DNA of 64,000 bases from a phage (GCA_018175075.1 GCA_018175075.1_4100.1), one strand, 5' to 3'. Counted from the first letter of the stretch, positions 10,060-56,832 are shown. The notes: a model not told the origin generated them from the sequence alone. Translations and numbers: made by a program.

Positions 10060-10069
10060 TAAAACAAAA

Positions 10070-11146: not shown

Positions 11147-11154
11147 TAATAAAA

Positions 11155-11187
11155 GGGTTGACTTCGGTCAGCCTTTTTTGTTATGAT
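11155..11187 (+). promoter_or_regulatory. fused terminator-promoter hairpin module
   Basis: GGTTGAC-TTCG-GTCAGCC + T6; TTGACT-N18-TATGAT. Confidence 0.6.
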
Positions 11188-11215
11188 GTTGGTATTAACT
11201 ACAGAGGATAAAGTA

Positions 11216-11857
11216 ATGACTAAGCAAGACATATTCAAAACTTTAATTGACATTTTGCGTCCATCAAAAACTCGTTGTGCGATGGAGTTTGATATTCCTT
11301 ATGCTGAACGCGTAATCTTTCCACAAGTTAAAGCTGCTGGACTTACTTTGCTTGGAATGGGGATGTACTCTGTAGTAGTTGAACATAAAAACTATCATGG
11401 ACGTGCATTTAAAGTAACCACTTCACGCTGGGATGGTTTTCGTGCTTATGCAAAGTACTGCATTGAAAACGCAGGAACCAAGTTTCTTCCAGTGATCTAC
11501 AGTGCCAACGAACAAGGAAACTTTGGATGGTATGAGATGGACAAGTACTATCCTATAATTAAACAAAAAAATAATTATGATGACTTTGTTAGTACTAAAA
11601 TTGGAGATTTATATTCTTATGCACATGCTGGTCAGTACGCTACTTCAGTGAATGATATGCGTGGAAATTCTGAAGAGATTGCTATTGCAACGGTCGCTGC
11701 TAACATCATGAAAGAGTTTCACGGGCGTTTTGTACCAGACATTCATTCAAGTAATGTGATGATGGATAAAGATGGCAATGTATTCATTACTGATCCTCTT
11801 TCGTGTGATGTACGTAGAGAAATACCAGTTACTGAAGAAGATCCAGTTTTTTATTGA
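11216..11857 (+). CDS. protein-kinase-like protein (mini-kinase 1)
   Basis: LLGMGMYSVVV...RAFKV (G-loop/Lys), PDIHSSNVMMDKDGNVFITDP (catalytic loop, DxG); GAGGA SD. Confidence 0.55.
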   Translation: MTKQDIFKTLIDILRPSKTRCAMEFDIPYAERVIFPQVKAAGLTLLGMGMYSVVVEHKNYHGRAFKVTTSRWDGFRAYAKYCIENAGTKFLPVIYSANEQGNFGWYEMDKYYPIIKQKNNYDDFVSTKIGDLYSYAHAGQYATSVNDMRGNSEEIAIATVAANIMKEFHGRFVPDIHSSNVMMDKDGNVFITDPLSCDVRREIPVTEEDPVFY

Positions 11858-11918
11858 CAGAACTGATGTTCTGGTGTATTCTTAATAAACCATAAAAATT
11901 GCGGTAAAGGATAAAATC

Positions 11919-12200
11919 ATGCGTTCATTTGAAAACTTAATAGGTAAGCATCTTTTATCTGAAATTGATGCAGACGTTAAAGAATTATCCAAATCAAAAA
12001 GTTACATTCATTTGGATGAACTGTTTATTAAGTACGGTGAGATTGGTTTTAAGTCATTATTTGTTTTTACTATGAAAGTACATAGTTTAAAGTACTTCGA
12101 TTTGAGTTCTAAAGATGGTGAACCGAATCTATATTACATGTATTACCTTAAGAACAAAGATGAAGCTAATACATTACTCTCTGAATATATATTGGGGTAA
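11919..12200 (+). CDS. hypothetical protein
   Basis: 93 aa; AAGGA SD. Confidence 0.6.
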   Translation: MRSFENLIGKHLLSEIDADVKELSKSKSYIHLDELFIKYGEIGFKSLFVFTMKVHSLKYFDLSSKDGEPNLYYMYYLKNKDEANTLLSEYILG

Positions 12201-12202
12201 AA

Positions 12203-12541
12203 ATGGAACAATATTTTGAATTAATAAACAAAGTATCATTTTATGTAGTATCTTTGGTTTGGGTGTATTATATGTTTTGCTATATTATTGCATTCTTCCG
12301 ATATACTACTTTATATGAACGTATCTACTATGATGCCCCAATTTCATTCTTGATGTTTTGTGCATGTACGTGGGGAATATTAGAAGTACTGATATGTGGG
12401 TATAGTACTGATGAATTAAATCTGGTATCGGTGTTGACTGGGTTTTCATTTGTTGTTATGATAGCTGCCGTTCCAGTATGGTTGTTCTTTGGACTAGTTC
12501 ATCGCATTGATATATGGCGTTCTAATATCCCTGAAAAGTAA
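12203..12541 (+). CDS. membrane protein, TM-FK paralog family
   Basis: 112 aa; TM1 then AFFRY motif; tail WRSNIPEK. Confidence 0.65.
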   Translation: MEQYFELINKVSFYVVSLVWVYYMFCYIIAFFRYTTLYERIYYDAPISFLMFCACTWGILEVLICGYSTDELNLVSVLTGFSFVVMIAAVPVWLFFGLVHRIDIWRSNIPEK

Positions 12542-12550
12542 GGATTGGAA

Positions 12551-12892
12551 ATGATTTATTACACTAACATGTTTGCCTATGCTGTTGCTTGCATTTACAT
12601 TGTTTACTTCTTATTCGGTGGAGTACTGTGCTTCTTTAAGTACAAAACGTTGTTCAACCGAATGTACCCAAATCATCCAATTGTAGTTGTACTTTTGATT
12701 CTTTCAGTTTCTCAAATAATCGTTGAAACTACAATGGGTATCAGTAGTGTACATTATAGTTTTGGCACTATAGTAATTATTACTATGCTTATTGCATACA
12801 TTTTAGTACTTGGATATGGTATCTTTGGTAATATTGGTATGAAAATGTATCATCGAATTAAAACATTACGTGATAATCTACCGGAGCGTTGA
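12551..12892 (+). CDS. membrane protein, TM-FK paralog family
   Basis: ATG start (track uses TTG at 12545); CFFKYKTLFNRMYP; tail LRDNLPER. Confidence 0.65.
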   Translation: MIYYTNMFAYAVACIYIVYFLFGGVLCFFKYKTLFNRMYPNHPIVVVLLILSVSQIIVETTMGISSVHYSFGTIVIITMLIAYILVLGYGIFGNIGMKMYHRIKTLRDNLPER

Positions 12893-12893
12893 T

Positions 12894-13238
12894 ATGTATA
12901 ATTTGAACCTAATCTCATATATTATAACAACACTGTTTACATTCTATGCCTTTGTTGGTATAATCCTACTGTACTTTAAATTTTATAAAGTGTTTAACCG
13001 TTTCTATCCTTCAATGGAGAATGAGTTTTTCTTTGTGTTGTACGTAGGTTACACATTAATGGCTACATGTTTCACTGTAGCCGATGGTGTCATCGGCATT
13101 AAAACTGATTCCCCAAATGGTAGTACGCTGGTTGCATTTATTCTTACTGGATTCCTTGCAACTTATATTGCCTTCATTACAACATGGTCAGTGGTTGAAT
13201 TTCTCTTGCGACTACGAAAGAATATGCCGAATCGATAG
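12894..13238 (+). CDS. membrane protein, TM-FK paralog family
   Basis: GGAG SD; LYFKFYKVFNRFYP; tail LRKNMPNR. Confidence 0.65.
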   Translation: MYNLNLISYIITTLFTFYAFVGIILLYFKFYKVFNRFYPSMENEFFFVLYVGYTLMATCFTVADGVIGIKTDSPNGSTLVAFILTGFLATYIAFITTWSVVEFLLRLRKNMPNR

Positions 13239-13247
13239 GAGACATAT

Positions 13248-13502
13248 ATGTTTGCGTTGCGTAATAAAAACACTAAAGAATTATTATGTATTGATACCGT
13301 ATGGGATTGTGCGGGATCAACTACAGTTCTTGAAGAAGGAACTGGATATTGCGTGTTTGTTGTTCATGATAGGAATGAACTCGAATTATTACTTGCTGAG
13401 TTCAATGCTGGTGGTAATCCTAACAGTACTGAATACCCTGAGATTATCAATCCAGCACCACCAGGCTCTTATGAAATTCTACAACTGTGGGAGTTGAAGT
13501 AA
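13248..13502 (+). CDS. hypothetical protein (paralog of 15366..15635)
   Basis: 84 aa; AGGAG SD; MFALRNKN... resembles MYALYNKE... Confidence 0.6.
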   Translation: MFALRNKNTKELLCIDTVWDCAGSTTVLEEGTGYCVFVVHDRNELELLLAEFNAGGNPNSTEYPEIINPAPPGSYEILQLWELK

Positions 13503-13882
13503 TGCGTCAAATGCACAAAGTAACCGAGCTAAACAAGCGTCTGGTTAAACAATCAATGTTCGAGGATAAAGAGTCTTATTATAACTTTAAACGTGCTGTA
13601 GAGGCTGCTATCCACATTCAGAAGCTTAAAGAACGTGGTTGTATTATTCTGGAAAATGGGTCGGAAGTTGTAACGGATGACTTTAGTGTAGCGTTTGATG
13701 TTTCACCTGACGGGACGCTATCAATGCCCCGCTTAGGAACTGGAAACATGACTGTTTGGGTTGGCTTCACTATGGGGAATGTACCTGGTACTGTGTACGT
13801 AGATGATGCGGAATTGAAAGACAGTTTCAAAAACTTATCTTATCTTGAACCACAATACGCACATGAAATGAATTTATTTTGA
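13502..13882 (+). CDS. hypothetical protein
   Basis: 126 aa from MRQMHK; TAATG coupling. Confidence 0.6.
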   Translation: MRQMHKVTELNKRLVKQSMFEDKESYYNFKRAVEAAIHIQKLKERGCIILENGSEVVTDDFSVAFDVSPDGTLSMPRLGTGNMTVWVGFTMGNVPGTVYVDDAELKDSFKNLSYLEPQYAHEMNLF

Positions 13883-13883
13883 G

Positions 13884-13941
13884 TTGACAAACACATTCAG
13901 TACTGTATAATGCTTATCAAGGGGATGAACTTCTCATCCCT
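13884..13941 (+). promoter_or_regulatory. promoter + 5'UTR hairpin unit
   Basis: TTGACA-N16-TGTATAAT, then GGGATGA-ACTTC-TCATCCC, then GAGGA SD. Confidence 0.6.
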
Positions 13942-13958
13942 ACAATCGAGGAACTACC

Positions 13959-14513
13959 ATGATTACTTTTAAGAAAACTGCTAACCACATCCATGAAATC
14001 TACATTAACGGTCACAAAGCTGGCCTTCTTCGTTTACTCGCCCATCATCCTGATGTTACCGTATCTGATAATGAACCTAAAGATTGGCGTGTATTTTTCT
14101 TTGGAAAGTACAGTGATTTTCAAGTATCAAACCTGAAGAACATTCGTTCAGTATGCACGTTAACTGAAATTAAAGAAAAGTTAGAAAAAGCATTGAAAAC
14201 TAATCCAGATGGTGTTCTTCCACCTGATAACTTTGTAGAGAAAGGTTATGCATTAGCTCATTTCAAAGATGGTACTATTCAATCTATCAGTACTGAATAT
14301 GAATATCAATGGACTGAGTACTTCACTTATGGATCGCGTAATACATTGATGGCTTCACGTAGTAAATTGGAAGAAGTACTGACTCGTATGAATGAACGCG
14401 AACGTCAATTTTATGACAAACCAGAAATGTGGAGTTCAACTTACATTGACCGTATTGACTATGTTATTATGACTCCAATCTTTGACACTGCTTACTATGA
14501 TTCTTTGAAATAA
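13959..14513 (+). CDS. hypothetical protein
   Basis: 184 aa; own promoter + GGGATGA/TCATCCC leader hairpin + GAGGA SD. Confidence 0.65.
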   Translation: MITFKKTANHIHEIYINGHKAGLLRLLAHHPDVTVSDNEPKDWRVFFFGKYSDFQVSNLKNIRSVCTLTEIKEKLEKALKTNPDGVLPPDNFVEKGYALAHFKDGTIQSISTEYEYQWTEYFTYGSRNTLMASRSKLEEVLTRMNERERQFYDKPEMWSSTYIDRIDYVIMTPIFDTAYYDSLK

Positions 14514-14524
14514 GGATAACTTAT

Positions 14525-14701
14525 ATGAAACTACGTACTCGTAATCGACTGATGGATGCACTGTACCATGAACAGCTTTCACTGAATGAAGTGAAGCGAC
14601 AGTTAATGTACACATATCTGTTACCCGCTCGCATTGCAAAACAACGTGCTAAAGAATTGCTGAAAGAAGCAATCGAGTACTGGGAATCTGATTCGTACTA
14701 A
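14525..14701 (+). CDS. hypothetical small protein
   Basis: 58 aa, below track cutoff; AAGGA SD; MKLRTRNRLMDALYHEQ... Confidence 0.45.
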   Translation: MKLRTRNRLMDALYHEQLSLNEVKRQLMYTYLLPARIAKQRAKELLKEAIEYWESDSY

Positions 14702-14729
14702 TTGTCACGTTAATTAAGTGAGGCGATAA

Positions 14730-14981
14730 ATGAAAATTTTATTAGTTCTAATACTACTAATTGTTTTACCATTTACGTTAGTATCCCCTGAACTTGCATG
14801 GAATGTGTTTGTGTACTTACTATGTACTATTGTAGTAAATGGTATCTTGTTCTTAGTTCTATTCATAAATGGAATAGGACACGGTGGAGGATGGACCAGT
14901 ACTGCTGATATTGTACATAAAACCACTATGTCTTTATTTGTAGTGTGGAATTTATTCTGGACTTGGTTTGTGTTCTTCTAA
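14730..14981 (+). CDS. small membrane protein
   Basis: 83 aa, three hydrophobic helices; GAGG SD. Confidence 0.6.
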   Translation: MKILLVLILLIVLPFTLVSPELAWNVFVYLLCTIVVNGILFLVLFINGIGHGGGWTSTADIVHKTTMSLFVVWNLFWTWFVFF

Positions 14982-14992
14982 TTAAAAAAAAT

Positions 14993-15364
14993 ATGAATAT
15001 AGATTTGAAAGGTGCAACACGAACTGTCATACTCATTGGGGAATATGCTATCAAGATTCCAACCTTTAAAAGTTGGAAGCTATTCTTAACAGGGATGATA
15101 GCTAACCTCAATGAATGTTCGTGGATGCAGTACTCCAAGCGTAGTAATAGTGGTATCTGCCCTACGTTGTGGTCATCATGTACTGGACTAGTAACTGTAC
15201 AGAAACGTTGTAAGCCAGTACAACATAGGGGTTTATTTTGGGTGGAGTTGTGTGCTTTAGCATTGGATTCAGAGTTAAGTACTGACTTCTTCTATTCAGA
15301 TGCGAAGCCAGAAAACTTTGGGTATCTGTGTGGTAAGTTGGTTAAACTTGATTATGGAGATTAA
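14993..15364 (+). CDS. protein-kinase-like protein (mini-kinase 2, 123 aa)
   Basis: GEYAIKIP (VAIK-like Lys), SDAKPENFG...KLVKLDYGD (DxKxxN + DxG); start at MNIDLKG. Confidence 0.45.
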   Translation: MNIDLKGATRTVILIGEYAIKIPTFKSWKLFLTGMIANLNECSWMQYSKRSNSGICPTLWSSCTGLVTVQKRCKPVQHRGLFWVELCALALDSELSTDFFYSDAKPENFGYLCGKLVKLDYGD

Positions 15365-15365
15365 T

Positions 15366-15635
15366 ATGTACGCACTGTATAATAAAGAAAAGAAACGATT
15401 TGCTAAGGTTGAAATTTCGATTGATACATTTGACATGTTGGAGTACTGTATTGTAACGGACTTATATGCTAACTTGTATTACGTTCTTGATGACGTATCA
15501 GTACTGCAACGATTGCTTGAGAATTCCAAAAGTCAATGCCAGGACATCCATGATGGTTCATCTTATGAAACACCTGAGTGTCCCCACGGGCAACTCGATG
15601 GGTATGAGATTGTTAAGTTGGGAATTGTTGAGTAA
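15366..15635 (+). CDS. hypothetical protein (paralog of 13248..13502)
   Basis: 89 aa; GGAG SD; start at MYALYNK. Confidence 0.6.
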   Translation: MYALYNKEKKRFAKVEISIDTFDMLEYCIVTDLYANLYYVLDDVSVLQRLLENSKSQCQDIHDGSSYETPECPHGQLDGYEIVKLGIVE

Positions 15636-15641
15636 AAGGTA

Positions 15642-15670
15642 TTGACACCGTACTCATTTAACTGTATTAT
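15642..15670 (+). promoter_or_regulatory. sigma70-type promoter
   Basis: TTGACA-N17-TATTAT. Confidence 0.55.
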
Positions 15671-55287: not shown

Positions 55288-55542
55288 ATGATTAAGGTTC
55301 AACTATATAAAGATAACATCTTACGGGTACACTATAAAGCACCTCAGAGAATCATCACAAAGGCCGTACAGCTTGCTAATGAGTTTATTAATGGTAACCT
55401 ATTACCTAGGAAGTTAAGCAACGGGAAACTGCGTGTAATCGACGTGGACACTAACAACAGGATAGTAATCGAGAACACAGGAAAGATAAACCTTTATGAG
55501 CATCAACAATACAATAAGAAAATAAAACTAATATCACGTTGA
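55288..55542 (+). CDS. hypothetical protein
   Basis: 84 aa; follows terminator at 55249. Confidence 0.6.
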   Translation: MIKVQLYKDNILRVHYKAPQRIITKAVQLANEFINGNLLPRKLSNGKLRVIDVDTNNRIVIENTGKINLYEHQQYNKKIKLISR

Positions 55543-56146: not shown

Positions 56147-56731
56147 ATGCGTAATTATACTAAATTCATCCGTACACTGTCAGAAATGGAAACCAACAAA
56201 GAGATCCTTTCAGCTTGTCGGTTAGCTGGCCTGGAGATCATCGGGGCGGGATCTTCCCGTATAGTTTTCGCTTTAAATGATCGGTTAGTGATTAAGGTCG
56301 CGAATTGTGATGCGGGTGTAGAACAAAATGAAACTGAATGTAAGGTATGGAATTTTTTAGACTATGACCGCCCTCAGTTGAAACAGTACTTTGCAAAGGT
56401 GCATATGCATTTATGCGATCCTGATAATATGTTTATCGTTATGGATCGGTTGAGTACTGCAAGCAAAGGCAGTGTGAAGCACGTTAACGCGTGCAATGAA
56501 TTAAAGTACAATATTAAACGTAATGCAATCGAACGCCAGCACCGCTTTGCTGATGCACTACAACACGTTGATGATACATTATCAACACTAACGATAAGAG
56601 ATATCAGAAAACAGAATATCGGCCAGGATCGTAATGGACTTATTAAAGTACTTGATTACGGTTTAACCCGCAATATCTGGAATCAGTACTATAAAAAGCG
56701 TGATGTAGCAGCAAGTAAGGTAACACGATAA
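56147..56731 (+). CDS. protein-kinase-like protein (mini-kinase 3)
   Basis: IIGAGSSRIVF...LVIKVA; RDIRKQNIGQDRNGLIKVLDYG; AAGGAG SD. Confidence 0.55.
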   Translation: MRNYTKFIRTLSEMETNKEILSACRLAGLEIIGAGSSRIVFALNDRLVIKVANCDAGVEQNETECKVWNFLDYDRPQLKQYFAKVHMHLCDPDNMFIVMDRLSTASKGSVKHVNACNELKYNIKRNAIERQHRFADALQHVDDTLSTLTIRDIRKQNIGQDRNGLIKVLDYGLTRNIWNQYYKKRDVAASKVTR

Positions 56732-56745
56732 AAAAGATTAAAAAA

Positions 56746-56832
56746 GGGATTGACTCCGGTCAGTCCCTTTGCTATTATATATTCATTGAGAGATAACTCA
56801 CTGACCCATAGGGTGCATAAGTGTATCTATTA
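56746..56832 (+). promoter_or_regulatory. fused terminator-promoter hairpin + GGGTGC-core element, copy 9
   Basis: same hairpin; TTGACT-N17-TATTAT; ..UGAGAGAUAACUCA..ACCCAUAGGGUGC. Confidence 0.55.

Follow-up and report, generated by a model that had tools for sequence, protein, structure and literature searches.

The closest described system for the proteins considered here is the kinase encoded by gene 0.7 of phage T7 (gp0.7, hereafter T7K), whose kinase domain (residues 1-242) carries a DPV motif at 213-215 and ends about 27 amino acids (aa) past this DFG equivalent (Bartolec et al., Nature 2026, PMC13645617). T7K proved experimentally hyperactive and promiscuous, and it disarms bacterial defenses by mass phosphorylation (PMC13645617). 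NleH and OspG have been described as kinases without subdomains VIII-XI (PMC12756638), and an extract of the published account presents OspG as a minimal kinase activated by its partner E2~Ub (PMC11078946). Here we analyzed a 64,000-nucleotide (nt) stretch of phage DNA (GCA_018175075.1_4100.1; the window), in which three plus-strand open reading frames (ORFs), at the positions and lengths given by an earlier note on this DNA, encode small proteins with kinase motifs: ORF1 (11216-11857, 213 aa), a stand-alone homolog of the T7K kinase domain; ORF2 (14993-15364, 123 aa), a predicted ultra-minimal protein-kinase-like core; and ORF3 (56147-56731, 194 aa), a kinase-like protein of Rak2-type jumbo phages. 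On balance we favor the view that these are three small stand-alone protein-kinase-like proteins of Hanks subdomains I-VII, which belong to two lineages and would serve phosphotransfer for host takeover or anti-defense.

Pairwise BLASTP among the three proteins gave weak scores (E 0.005 to 2.5); pairwise similarity alone was therefore insufficient for a finding, and the family alignments supplied it. Chance is not enough to account for the motif residues, which coincide with the conserved columns in each family. All motifs quoted in the earlier note, which listed them in the order ORF1/ORF3/ORF2 and not by coordinate, are present in the translations: LLGMGMYSVVV, AFKV, PDIHSSNVM and ITDP in ORF1; IIGAGSSRIVF, VIKV, RDIRKQNIG and VLDYG in ORF3; and GEYAIKIP, SDAKPENFG and KLDYG in ORF2. 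Comparison of the family profiles revealed no detectable kinship of ORF1 to ORF2 or ORF3 beyond the catalytic loop (hhalign probability 1-4%), so the earlier description of three paralogs was abandoned: by profile comparison there are two lineages, ORF1 being of T7-kinase type and ORF2 and ORF3 being distantly related members of PHROG 4301. HMMs (hidden Markov models) of all three families detected no additional paralog among all 583 six-frame ORFs of the window.

ORF1 matched phrog_15752 at E 1e-96 and the T7 gp0.7 family phrog_2828 at E 3e-15, and T7 gp0.7 itself matched phrog_15752 at E 1.7e-46. The ORF1-family profile aligned with T7 gp0.7 over T7K residues 61-230 (hhalign 98.5%, E 3e-15), and PF27024 is precomputed on ORF1 homologs; there was no match of ORF1 to Pfam PF00069 (Pkinase). 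Eight residues are invariant in 18 homologs (G47, G49, K66, D175, H177, N180, D193 and P194), and T192 is a further invariant position in the region of the catalytic loop and DFG equivalent. This region (11738-11797, plus strand), defined by the invariant columns, reads D175-I-H-S-S-N180 followed by I-T-D193-P and aligns with FDMHSGNIM...ITDP of T7K. At the position of the T7K DPV, D193-P194 is invariant and the third residue is Leu or Phe in the ORF1 family; the jumbophage branch of T7K homologs lacks the Val of DPV or conserves it less well (Bartolec et al., Nature 2026, PMC13645617). ORF1 terminates 20 aa after the Mg-binding D193, at the hhalign equivalent of T7K residue 230, and so lacks the C-terminal shutoff/DNA-binding domain. 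Its membership of the protein-kinase-like (PKL) superfamily and its bilobal fold both follow from homology to T7K, and the alignments identify it as a kinase-domain-only homolog of that enzyme. Loss of the shutoff domain has been described for T7K homologs in jumbophages, with G17 and Munch named and their function left open (PMC13645617). The Sharanji paper (PMC11895373) names WNN14432.1, the Sharanji ortholog of ORF1, as a T7-kinase homolog; the kinase homology of ORF1 is already published and not new.

ORF2 matched PHROG 4301 ('unknown function') at E 3.2e-43, and ORF3 matched the same family (phrog_4301) at E 3.5e-42. A 154-sequence profile of the ORF2 family aligned with the ORF3 family over ORF2 residues 2-122 and ORF3 residues 30-172 (hhalign 95.6%, E 1.2e-8), and the ORF2-family HMM recovered ORF3 within the window at E 6e-8. 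Because ORF2 aligns over its full length, ORF3 corresponds to ORF2 enlarged in three places: two helices are added at the N-terminus, a segment is inserted ahead of the catalytic loop, and a tail of 24 aa follows D170. The AlphaFold2 (AF2) model of ORF2 was confident (predicted local distance difference test, pLDDT, 90.2; predicted template-modeling score, pTM, 0.81), and the predicted elements follow the order beta1-beta2-beta3 (K21), alphaC (E41), beta4-beta5, one alphaE-like helix, catalytic loop (D103..N108), beta7-beta8 and D120-Y-G. The model matched exclusively kinase-like folds, and in BFVD similar phage proteins of 117-209 aa were found (e.g. 133 aa in Aeromonas phage PS1, TM 0.86/0.80). 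Judging from conservation and secondary structure, the putative nucleotide-binding elements lie at 15011-15115 (plus strand) and comprise the G7-x-T9-R10 loop, the beta3 K21 (AIK-I-P23) and alphaC N38...E41. The earlier note had rightly picked out the Lys of AIK (K21), and had taken the preceding GEY for the glycine-rich loop; in the model GEY forms the beta2-beta3 turn, and the equivalent of the loop is K-G7-A-T-R10-T-V between beta1 and beta2. The candidate catalytic loop and Mg-binding motif (15299-15358, plus strand) are D103-A-K105-P-E-N108-F-G110 and, at the C-terminus, D120-Y-G122; the chain stops one residue past the DYG glycine and 3 residues past D120.

The profile of the ORF3 family matched the solved kinases MKK4 and MKK7 in PDB (E 1.6e-4 to 1e-3), and the MKK7 alignment spans the glycine loop, catalytic loop and DFG (ORF3 profile 29-183 versus kinase 21-172). 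The match of ORF3 to Pfam Pkinase was below the gathering threshold (E 0.0026; 17.6 bits versus a cut-off of 31.7), and the Muenster record for the ortholog cites the annotator's HHpred match of 99.9% to kinase chain 6J5T_M. G33, G35, K50, N61, E64, D152, D170 and G172 are invariant in 14 homologs, and N157 is conserved in at least 90%. The catalytic loop and DYG (56600-56662, plus strand; D152-I-R-K-Q-N157-I-G and D170-Y-G172) are those aligned to MKK4/MKK7. Orthologs are annotated as kinases in K64-1, Munch, Muenster, SE_PL and ph0011, and WNN14351.1, which the Sharanji paper calls 'another protein kinase' (PMC11895373), is the Sharanji ortholog; the kinase homology of ORF3 is thus not new, having been named by earlier annotators and by that paper. 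The protein-kinase-like character that the earlier note had ascribed to all three products is borne out by T7 gp0.7 homology for ORF1, by the MKK4/MKK7 profile matches for ORF3 and by the predicted fold for ORF2; the absence of any kinase-fold match and of a bilobal ATP site, which it had named as decisive against its claim, was not what we found.

The part of this system that is new, as far as the sequences indicate, is ORF2, a member of a large family that has no functional name and keeps its catalytic residues. An exhaustive HMM search over 1.84 billion representatives (clusters at 50% identity) recovered 1212 proteins at E<=1e-3, i.e. at least 1200 clusters, and 638 at E<=1e-10. With few exceptions, the 150 best-scoring proteins measure 110-140 aa, and the end of the profile is the end of the protein: 115 of 160 representatives (~72%) end 2-3 residues past the DYG Asp, and because this C-terminal end is shared, the truncation is the conserved state and not decay. 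In 15 homologs of 45-66% identity, G7, T9, R10, K21, P23, N38, E41, D103, K105, P106, N108, D120 and G122 are invariant; in 125 diverse family sequences, G7, R10, K21, E41 and D120 are. Among the 160 representatives, K21 is retained in 157, E41 in 159, D120 in 155, K105 in 135 and G110 in 154. PHROGs gives PHROG 4301 no functional label, there is no Pfam or NCBIfam model for the family, and our literature searches found no study of it and no described 120-aa phage kinase. The T7K study sought kinases in the BASEL phage collection and analyzed the T7-like ones and P1 Doc only (PMC13645617).

The catalytic loop of the ORF2 family showed coupled variation. The position of D103 holds D or E in 153 of 160 representatives, and that of N108 holds N or S in 153 of 160; when both positions (catalytic base and metal ligand) were scored in 154 sequences, the pair was D/N in 98, E/S in 42 and mixed (E/N or D/S) in 8. 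Two versions of the loop, D-x-K-x-x-N (82) and E-x-K-x-x-S (42), were seen at these positions (profile positions 100 and 105, corresponding to D103 and N108; window 15299-15316). At least eight switches between D/N and E/S were counted on a neighbor-joining tree built without those two columns, a noisy tree on which the count is rough. We read the coupled change as pointing to selection on a functioning active site; no earlier example of a kinase catalytic loop of E/S type is known to us. A 1073-aa protein (P0077) gave 16 separate partial matches to profile positions 50-101 and looks, from its sequence, like a repetitive protein made from a fragment of the ORF2 fold. Ten longer members of the family, examined for domain fusions that might hint at a function, yielded no informative Pfam domain.

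All three proteins are truncated in a similar manner. Past the Mg-binding Asp, 20 residues remain in ORF1, 3 in ORF2 and 24 in ORF3, and therefore none of them contains Hanks subdomains VIII-XI; the activation segment, the APE motif and helices alphaF-alphaI of canonical kinases are missing from each. The residues of the PKL catalytic core are present: beta3 Lys and alphaC Glu as K21/E41 in ORF2 and K50/E64 in ORF3, the beta3 Lys as K66 in ORF1, and the Asp...Asn pair with the Mg-binding Asp as D103/N108/D120 in ORF2, D152/N157/D170 in ORF3 and D175/N180/D193 in ORF1. T7K shares this truncated architecture with ORF2 and ORF3, and with ORF1 it shares homology over the kinase domain and the motifs H-S-x-N-I/V-M and I-T-D-P. 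It differs from ORF1 in possessing the C-terminal shutoff/DNA-binding domain (T7K residues 243-359) and in having D-P-V where ORF1 has D-P-L, and from ORF2 and ORF3, which show no detectable sequence kinship to it, in that these have DYG (DFG-type) and a D-x-K-x-x-N loop. Since T7K is highly active with the same truncated architecture and works as a tool of anti-defense and host takeover, truncation is no argument against activity, and the truncated NleH and OspG lead to the same conclusion. OspG, NleH1-2 and HopBF1 resemble the phage proteins in the kind of truncation and in being weapons sent into the cytoplasm of another organism, whereas they are type III effectors acting in eukaryotic cells and not phage proteins in bacteria, and their solved chains have 160-176 residues, compared with 123 aa in ORF2, which ends at its motif. 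These effectors keep some helices after the Mg-binding loop. No specific sequence or structural kinship was found between them and the ORF proteins beyond the general kinase fold. The atypical kinases RIO and Bud32 and the archaeal RNA kinases Ark1/ArkI are larger (stand-alone solved chains of 173-269 residues; Bud32 solved as a 519-residue KAE1 fusion), retain C-lobe helices and differ in their catalytic-loop signatures, and no sequence relationship between RIO, Bud32, Ark1 or ArkI and the phage proteins was found. The earlier note had thought 123 aa an unusual size, and ORF2 is indeed smaller than the smallest kinase domains known to us.

In the mechanism that we infer for the three proteins, a nucleotide-binding N-lobe would be joined to the catalytic-loop/Mg-binding part of a C-lobe, with neither an activation segment nor alphaF-alphaI. 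Mg-ATP would be bound with the beta3 Lys/alphaC Glu on one side and the terminal Asp on the other, and the gamma-phosphate would be transferred via the D-x-K-x-x-N loop, which in its D-x-K-P-E-N form is that of Ser/Thr protein kinases. Because a substrate-docking C-lobe is missing, either loosely selected host and phage proteins would be phosphorylated, as by T7K, or a host partner would dock and position or activate the enzyme, as E2~Ub does for OspG. Host-type promoters would probably drive the genes, whose role would be an accessory one in takeover or anti-defense, and the context of expression lends this some support: strong promoter-like sites precede ORF1 and the ORF2 cluster, and in the phages vB_Ec-M-J and Muenster the ortholog of ORF3 lies inside a direct terminal repeat of 20-21.5 kb.

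Several results weigh against this view. ORF2 matched nothing at E<=0.05 in Pfam, NCBIfam or PADLOC, or in PDB by phmmer and hmmsearch; none of 125 family members matched Pfam Pkinase (0/125); and the best match of the 125-sequence family profile to a solved kinase was TTK at E 0.055, through the catalytic loop and DFG (TTK HSDLKPANF...IDFG). The assignment of ORF2 to the kinases therefore rests on predicted structure and motifs, and these sequence results account for the family being annotated as 'hypothetical'. The AF2 model of ORF3 (14 sequences) was poor (pLDDT 50) and its Foldseek matches cover the N-lobe only, the one part that resembled kinase-like folds, so that the bilobal fold of ORF3 is indicated through profile homology and not by its own model. 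Helix alphaF, regarded as the scaffold of canonical kinases, is absent in all three proteins. Promoter matches in the region 10-16.5 kb numbered 29 versus 27.3 in shuffled sequence, i.e. without excess, and every promoter named here is a predicted consensus match.

The ORF2 family was found by tblastn in 115 phage records, including Asteriusvirus, T4-like Dhakavirus and relatives (JS10 and PaulHMueller, the latter a member of the BASEL collection), N4-like phi G17, PaMx11-type siphoviruses, and the jumbo phages PS1, Y3, OBP and RP12. The label 'hypothetical' is attached to almost all of these genes; three (Kc263, AH04 and pEa_SNUABM_5) are named as kinases. All-against-all BLASTP of the neighborhoods in five phage lineages revealed no conserved neighbor, the mini-kinase gene itself being the only one in common. 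In lambdoid prophages of Salmonella enterica (6001-6372 of contigs L009 and L010), a family gene encoding a 123-aa protein (P0025) lies between an Rz-type lysis gene and terminase Nu1, an interval that is typical of cargo ('moron') genes. The varied contexts without a common neighbor and this cargo-type position together suggest a stand-alone accessory gene. HicAB toxin-antitoxin genes were also observed near P0025 in these contigs. In the T4-like phage JS10 (1477-1845 of record L004), the family gene lies directly upstream of rnlB (RNA ligase 2), an adjacency that could hint at an RNA-related role but did not recur in the other lineages examined.

A stronger claim for the ORF2 family, that it is an autonomous, active protein kinase of subdomains I-VII alone, either promiscuous or borrowing a host protein as its missing C-lobe, and a widespread, hitherto overlooked phage phosphorylation weapon aimed at host physiology or defense, is in our judgment a real possibility, though short of probable. 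The C-terminal carboxylate would then sit at the active site and no alphaF scaffold would be needed, and, if active, this would be the smallest kinase-fold enzyme known to us. Alternatively, ORF2 may be half an enzyme, inactive alone, to which a second polypeptide of phage or host, or a second copy in a homodimer, supplies the C-lobe scaffold. The C-terminus fixed sharply 2-3 residues past the DYG Asp would leave free the surface that normally lies under alphaF, and activation of OspG by E2~Ub offers a precedent in the extract cited above (PMC11078946). The ATG of the next gene (15367-15635) follows the ORF2 stop by only 2 nt, with a GGAG within the 3' end of ORF2. This downstream gene was rejected as the missing C-lobe, however, because no neighbor is common to the five lineages and the prophage contexts differ, which makes a dedicated phage-encoded partner unlikely; the ORF2 monomer was, moreover, modeled confidently alone. 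We consider a half-enzyme unlikely on these grounds.

Rather improbable, in our estimate, is that ORF2 and possibly ORF3 are small-molecule or nucleic-acid kinases, which would use the same ATP site on an antibiotic-like compound, a nucleotide second messenger or RNA and need no docking surface. The complete absence of peptide-binding elements, the best matches of the confident part of the ORF3 model to the N-lobes of APH(2'') and the rnlB adjacency in JS10 would fit such a role, but that neighborhood is not kept in the other lineages examined, and the best sequence matches are protein kinases (TTK for the ORF2 family, MKK4/MKK7 for the ORF3 family). The D-x-K-P-E-N loop likewise speaks for a protein substrate, its +2 Lys being found in 135 of 160 family members; this Lys is characteristic of Ser/Thr protein kinases and is missing from the loops of APH, choline kinase, RIO and Bud32. 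In the other 25 of 160 this position is occupied by a different residue or falls in a gap, which is a point in favor of ORF2 being a non-catalytic nucleotide binder, i.e. a pseudokinase, an ATP/nucleotide decoy or sponge, or an inhibitor plugging a host protein. Small phage proteins are often binders or sponges, and the missing activation segment and alphaF-alphaI would suit such a function. Pseudokinases, however, typically lose the residues of the catalytic base and metal ligand, whereas in the ORF2 family the complete set of catalytic residues stays near-invariant in more than 150 sequences that share at most 50% identity and the two positions switch together from D/N to E/S without decay; a non-catalytic role is therefore doubtful. 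The idea that ORF2 is what decay has left of a longer kinase gene, or that its motifs resemble those of kinases by chance, could appeal to the weak pairwise BLASTP scores and to the fragmented locus in some Salmonella jumbo phages (51-63% coverage, two coding sequences), but is effectively refuted by more than 1200 clusters with the same 110-140 aa length and C-terminal end, by the invariant catalytic residues in homologs 45-66% identical and by the confident model.

The window between 10.5 and 16 kb is 97-99% identical to the Escherichia coli Asteriusvirus jumbo phages 121Q, phAPEC6, G17 and Sharanji, and its source can be assigned to a 121Q/G17-like Asteriusvirus jumbo phage. The counterparts in 121Q are gp205 ('protein kinase') for ORF1 and gp215 and gp308 (both hypothetical) for ORF2 and ORF3. 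The ORF2 start at 14993 and the ORF3 start at 56147 match the N-termini of homologs. The ORF1 start at 11216, which we take to be correct, is preceded 8 nt upstream by an AGAGGA Shine-Dalgarno sequence; the 121Q record instead takes an ATG at 11183, which falls within a promoter-like -10 box. In that record, gp205 is annotated as 224 aa (2184-2858 of L001; cf. window 11183-11857), and this start is probably 11 codons too early, because most homologs are 213 aa long and begin with MTK behind a good ribosome-binding site.

The promoter-like sites around these genes are pattern matches. A composite of a hairpin and a sigma-70-like promoter (11153-11187, plus strand; stem with TTGACT, -10 TGTTATGAT) lies just upstream of ORF1, and a perfect sigma-70 consensus (TTGACA-16-TATAAT; 13884-13911, plus strand) lies ahead of the five-gene plus-strand cluster (13959-15635) to which ORF2 belongs. 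A further hairpin-promoter composite (56743-56778, plus strand) is located directly downstream of ORF3. The 4 kb around ORF3 contain 23 sigma-70 consensus promoters versus 12.9+-3.6 expected, four of them perfect (54057, 54328, 54758 and 57179, plus strand), and since this region matches the direct terminal repeat of related phages, the genes around ORF3 are probably the first to be expressed. Near-identical TTGACA-17-TACTAT sites at 55539 and 55815 create spurious TTG-start ORFs beginning 'MTVLKCFST'.

The hairpins share a 20-nt core, GGNTTGACTNNGGTCRGNCC, of which the window contains 10 copies, all on the plus strand (4222, 7462, 8224, 10069, 11155, 16071, 49484, 53479, 56747 and 59011), versus 0.02 expected by chance; copies are found upstream of ORF1 and downstream of ORF3. 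A -35-like TTGACT is part of the stem in all four copies inspected (10069, 11155, 16071 and 56747), and in three of them a -10-like TATTAT or TATGAT follows, none being reported at 10069. From its sequence, the element seems to be a cassette, placed among small genes, that would combine a terminator with an early promoter; the promoter-early stem-loops of T4-type phages are similar. A tandem array of three paralogous genes between ORF1 and ORF2 (12203-13238, plus strand) encodes small membrane proteins of 112-115 aa that are 22-31% identical, with the motif F-x-Y/F-x-T/K-L/V-F/Y-x-R-x-Y and a C-terminal R-x-N-x-P-E/N-K/R. At 15637-15668, an 889-bp segment of 121Q (L001 6646-7534) with denV (endonuclease V) and one small gene is absent from the window and replaced by about 31 bp containing a TTGACA-17-TATTAT promoter-like site; the other annotated records compared keep endonuclease V at that locus.

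The ORF2-family proteins, small and soluble-looking, are invisible to Pfam and NCBIfam, yet they occur in T4-like, N4-like, siphoviral, jumbo and temperate phages. If they are active, the minimal requirements of the kinase fold would need revision, as neither alphaF nor an activation segment nor a substrate-binding lobe would be indispensable, and phosphorylation of the host by phages through such proteins of about 120 residues would be far more common than is annotated.

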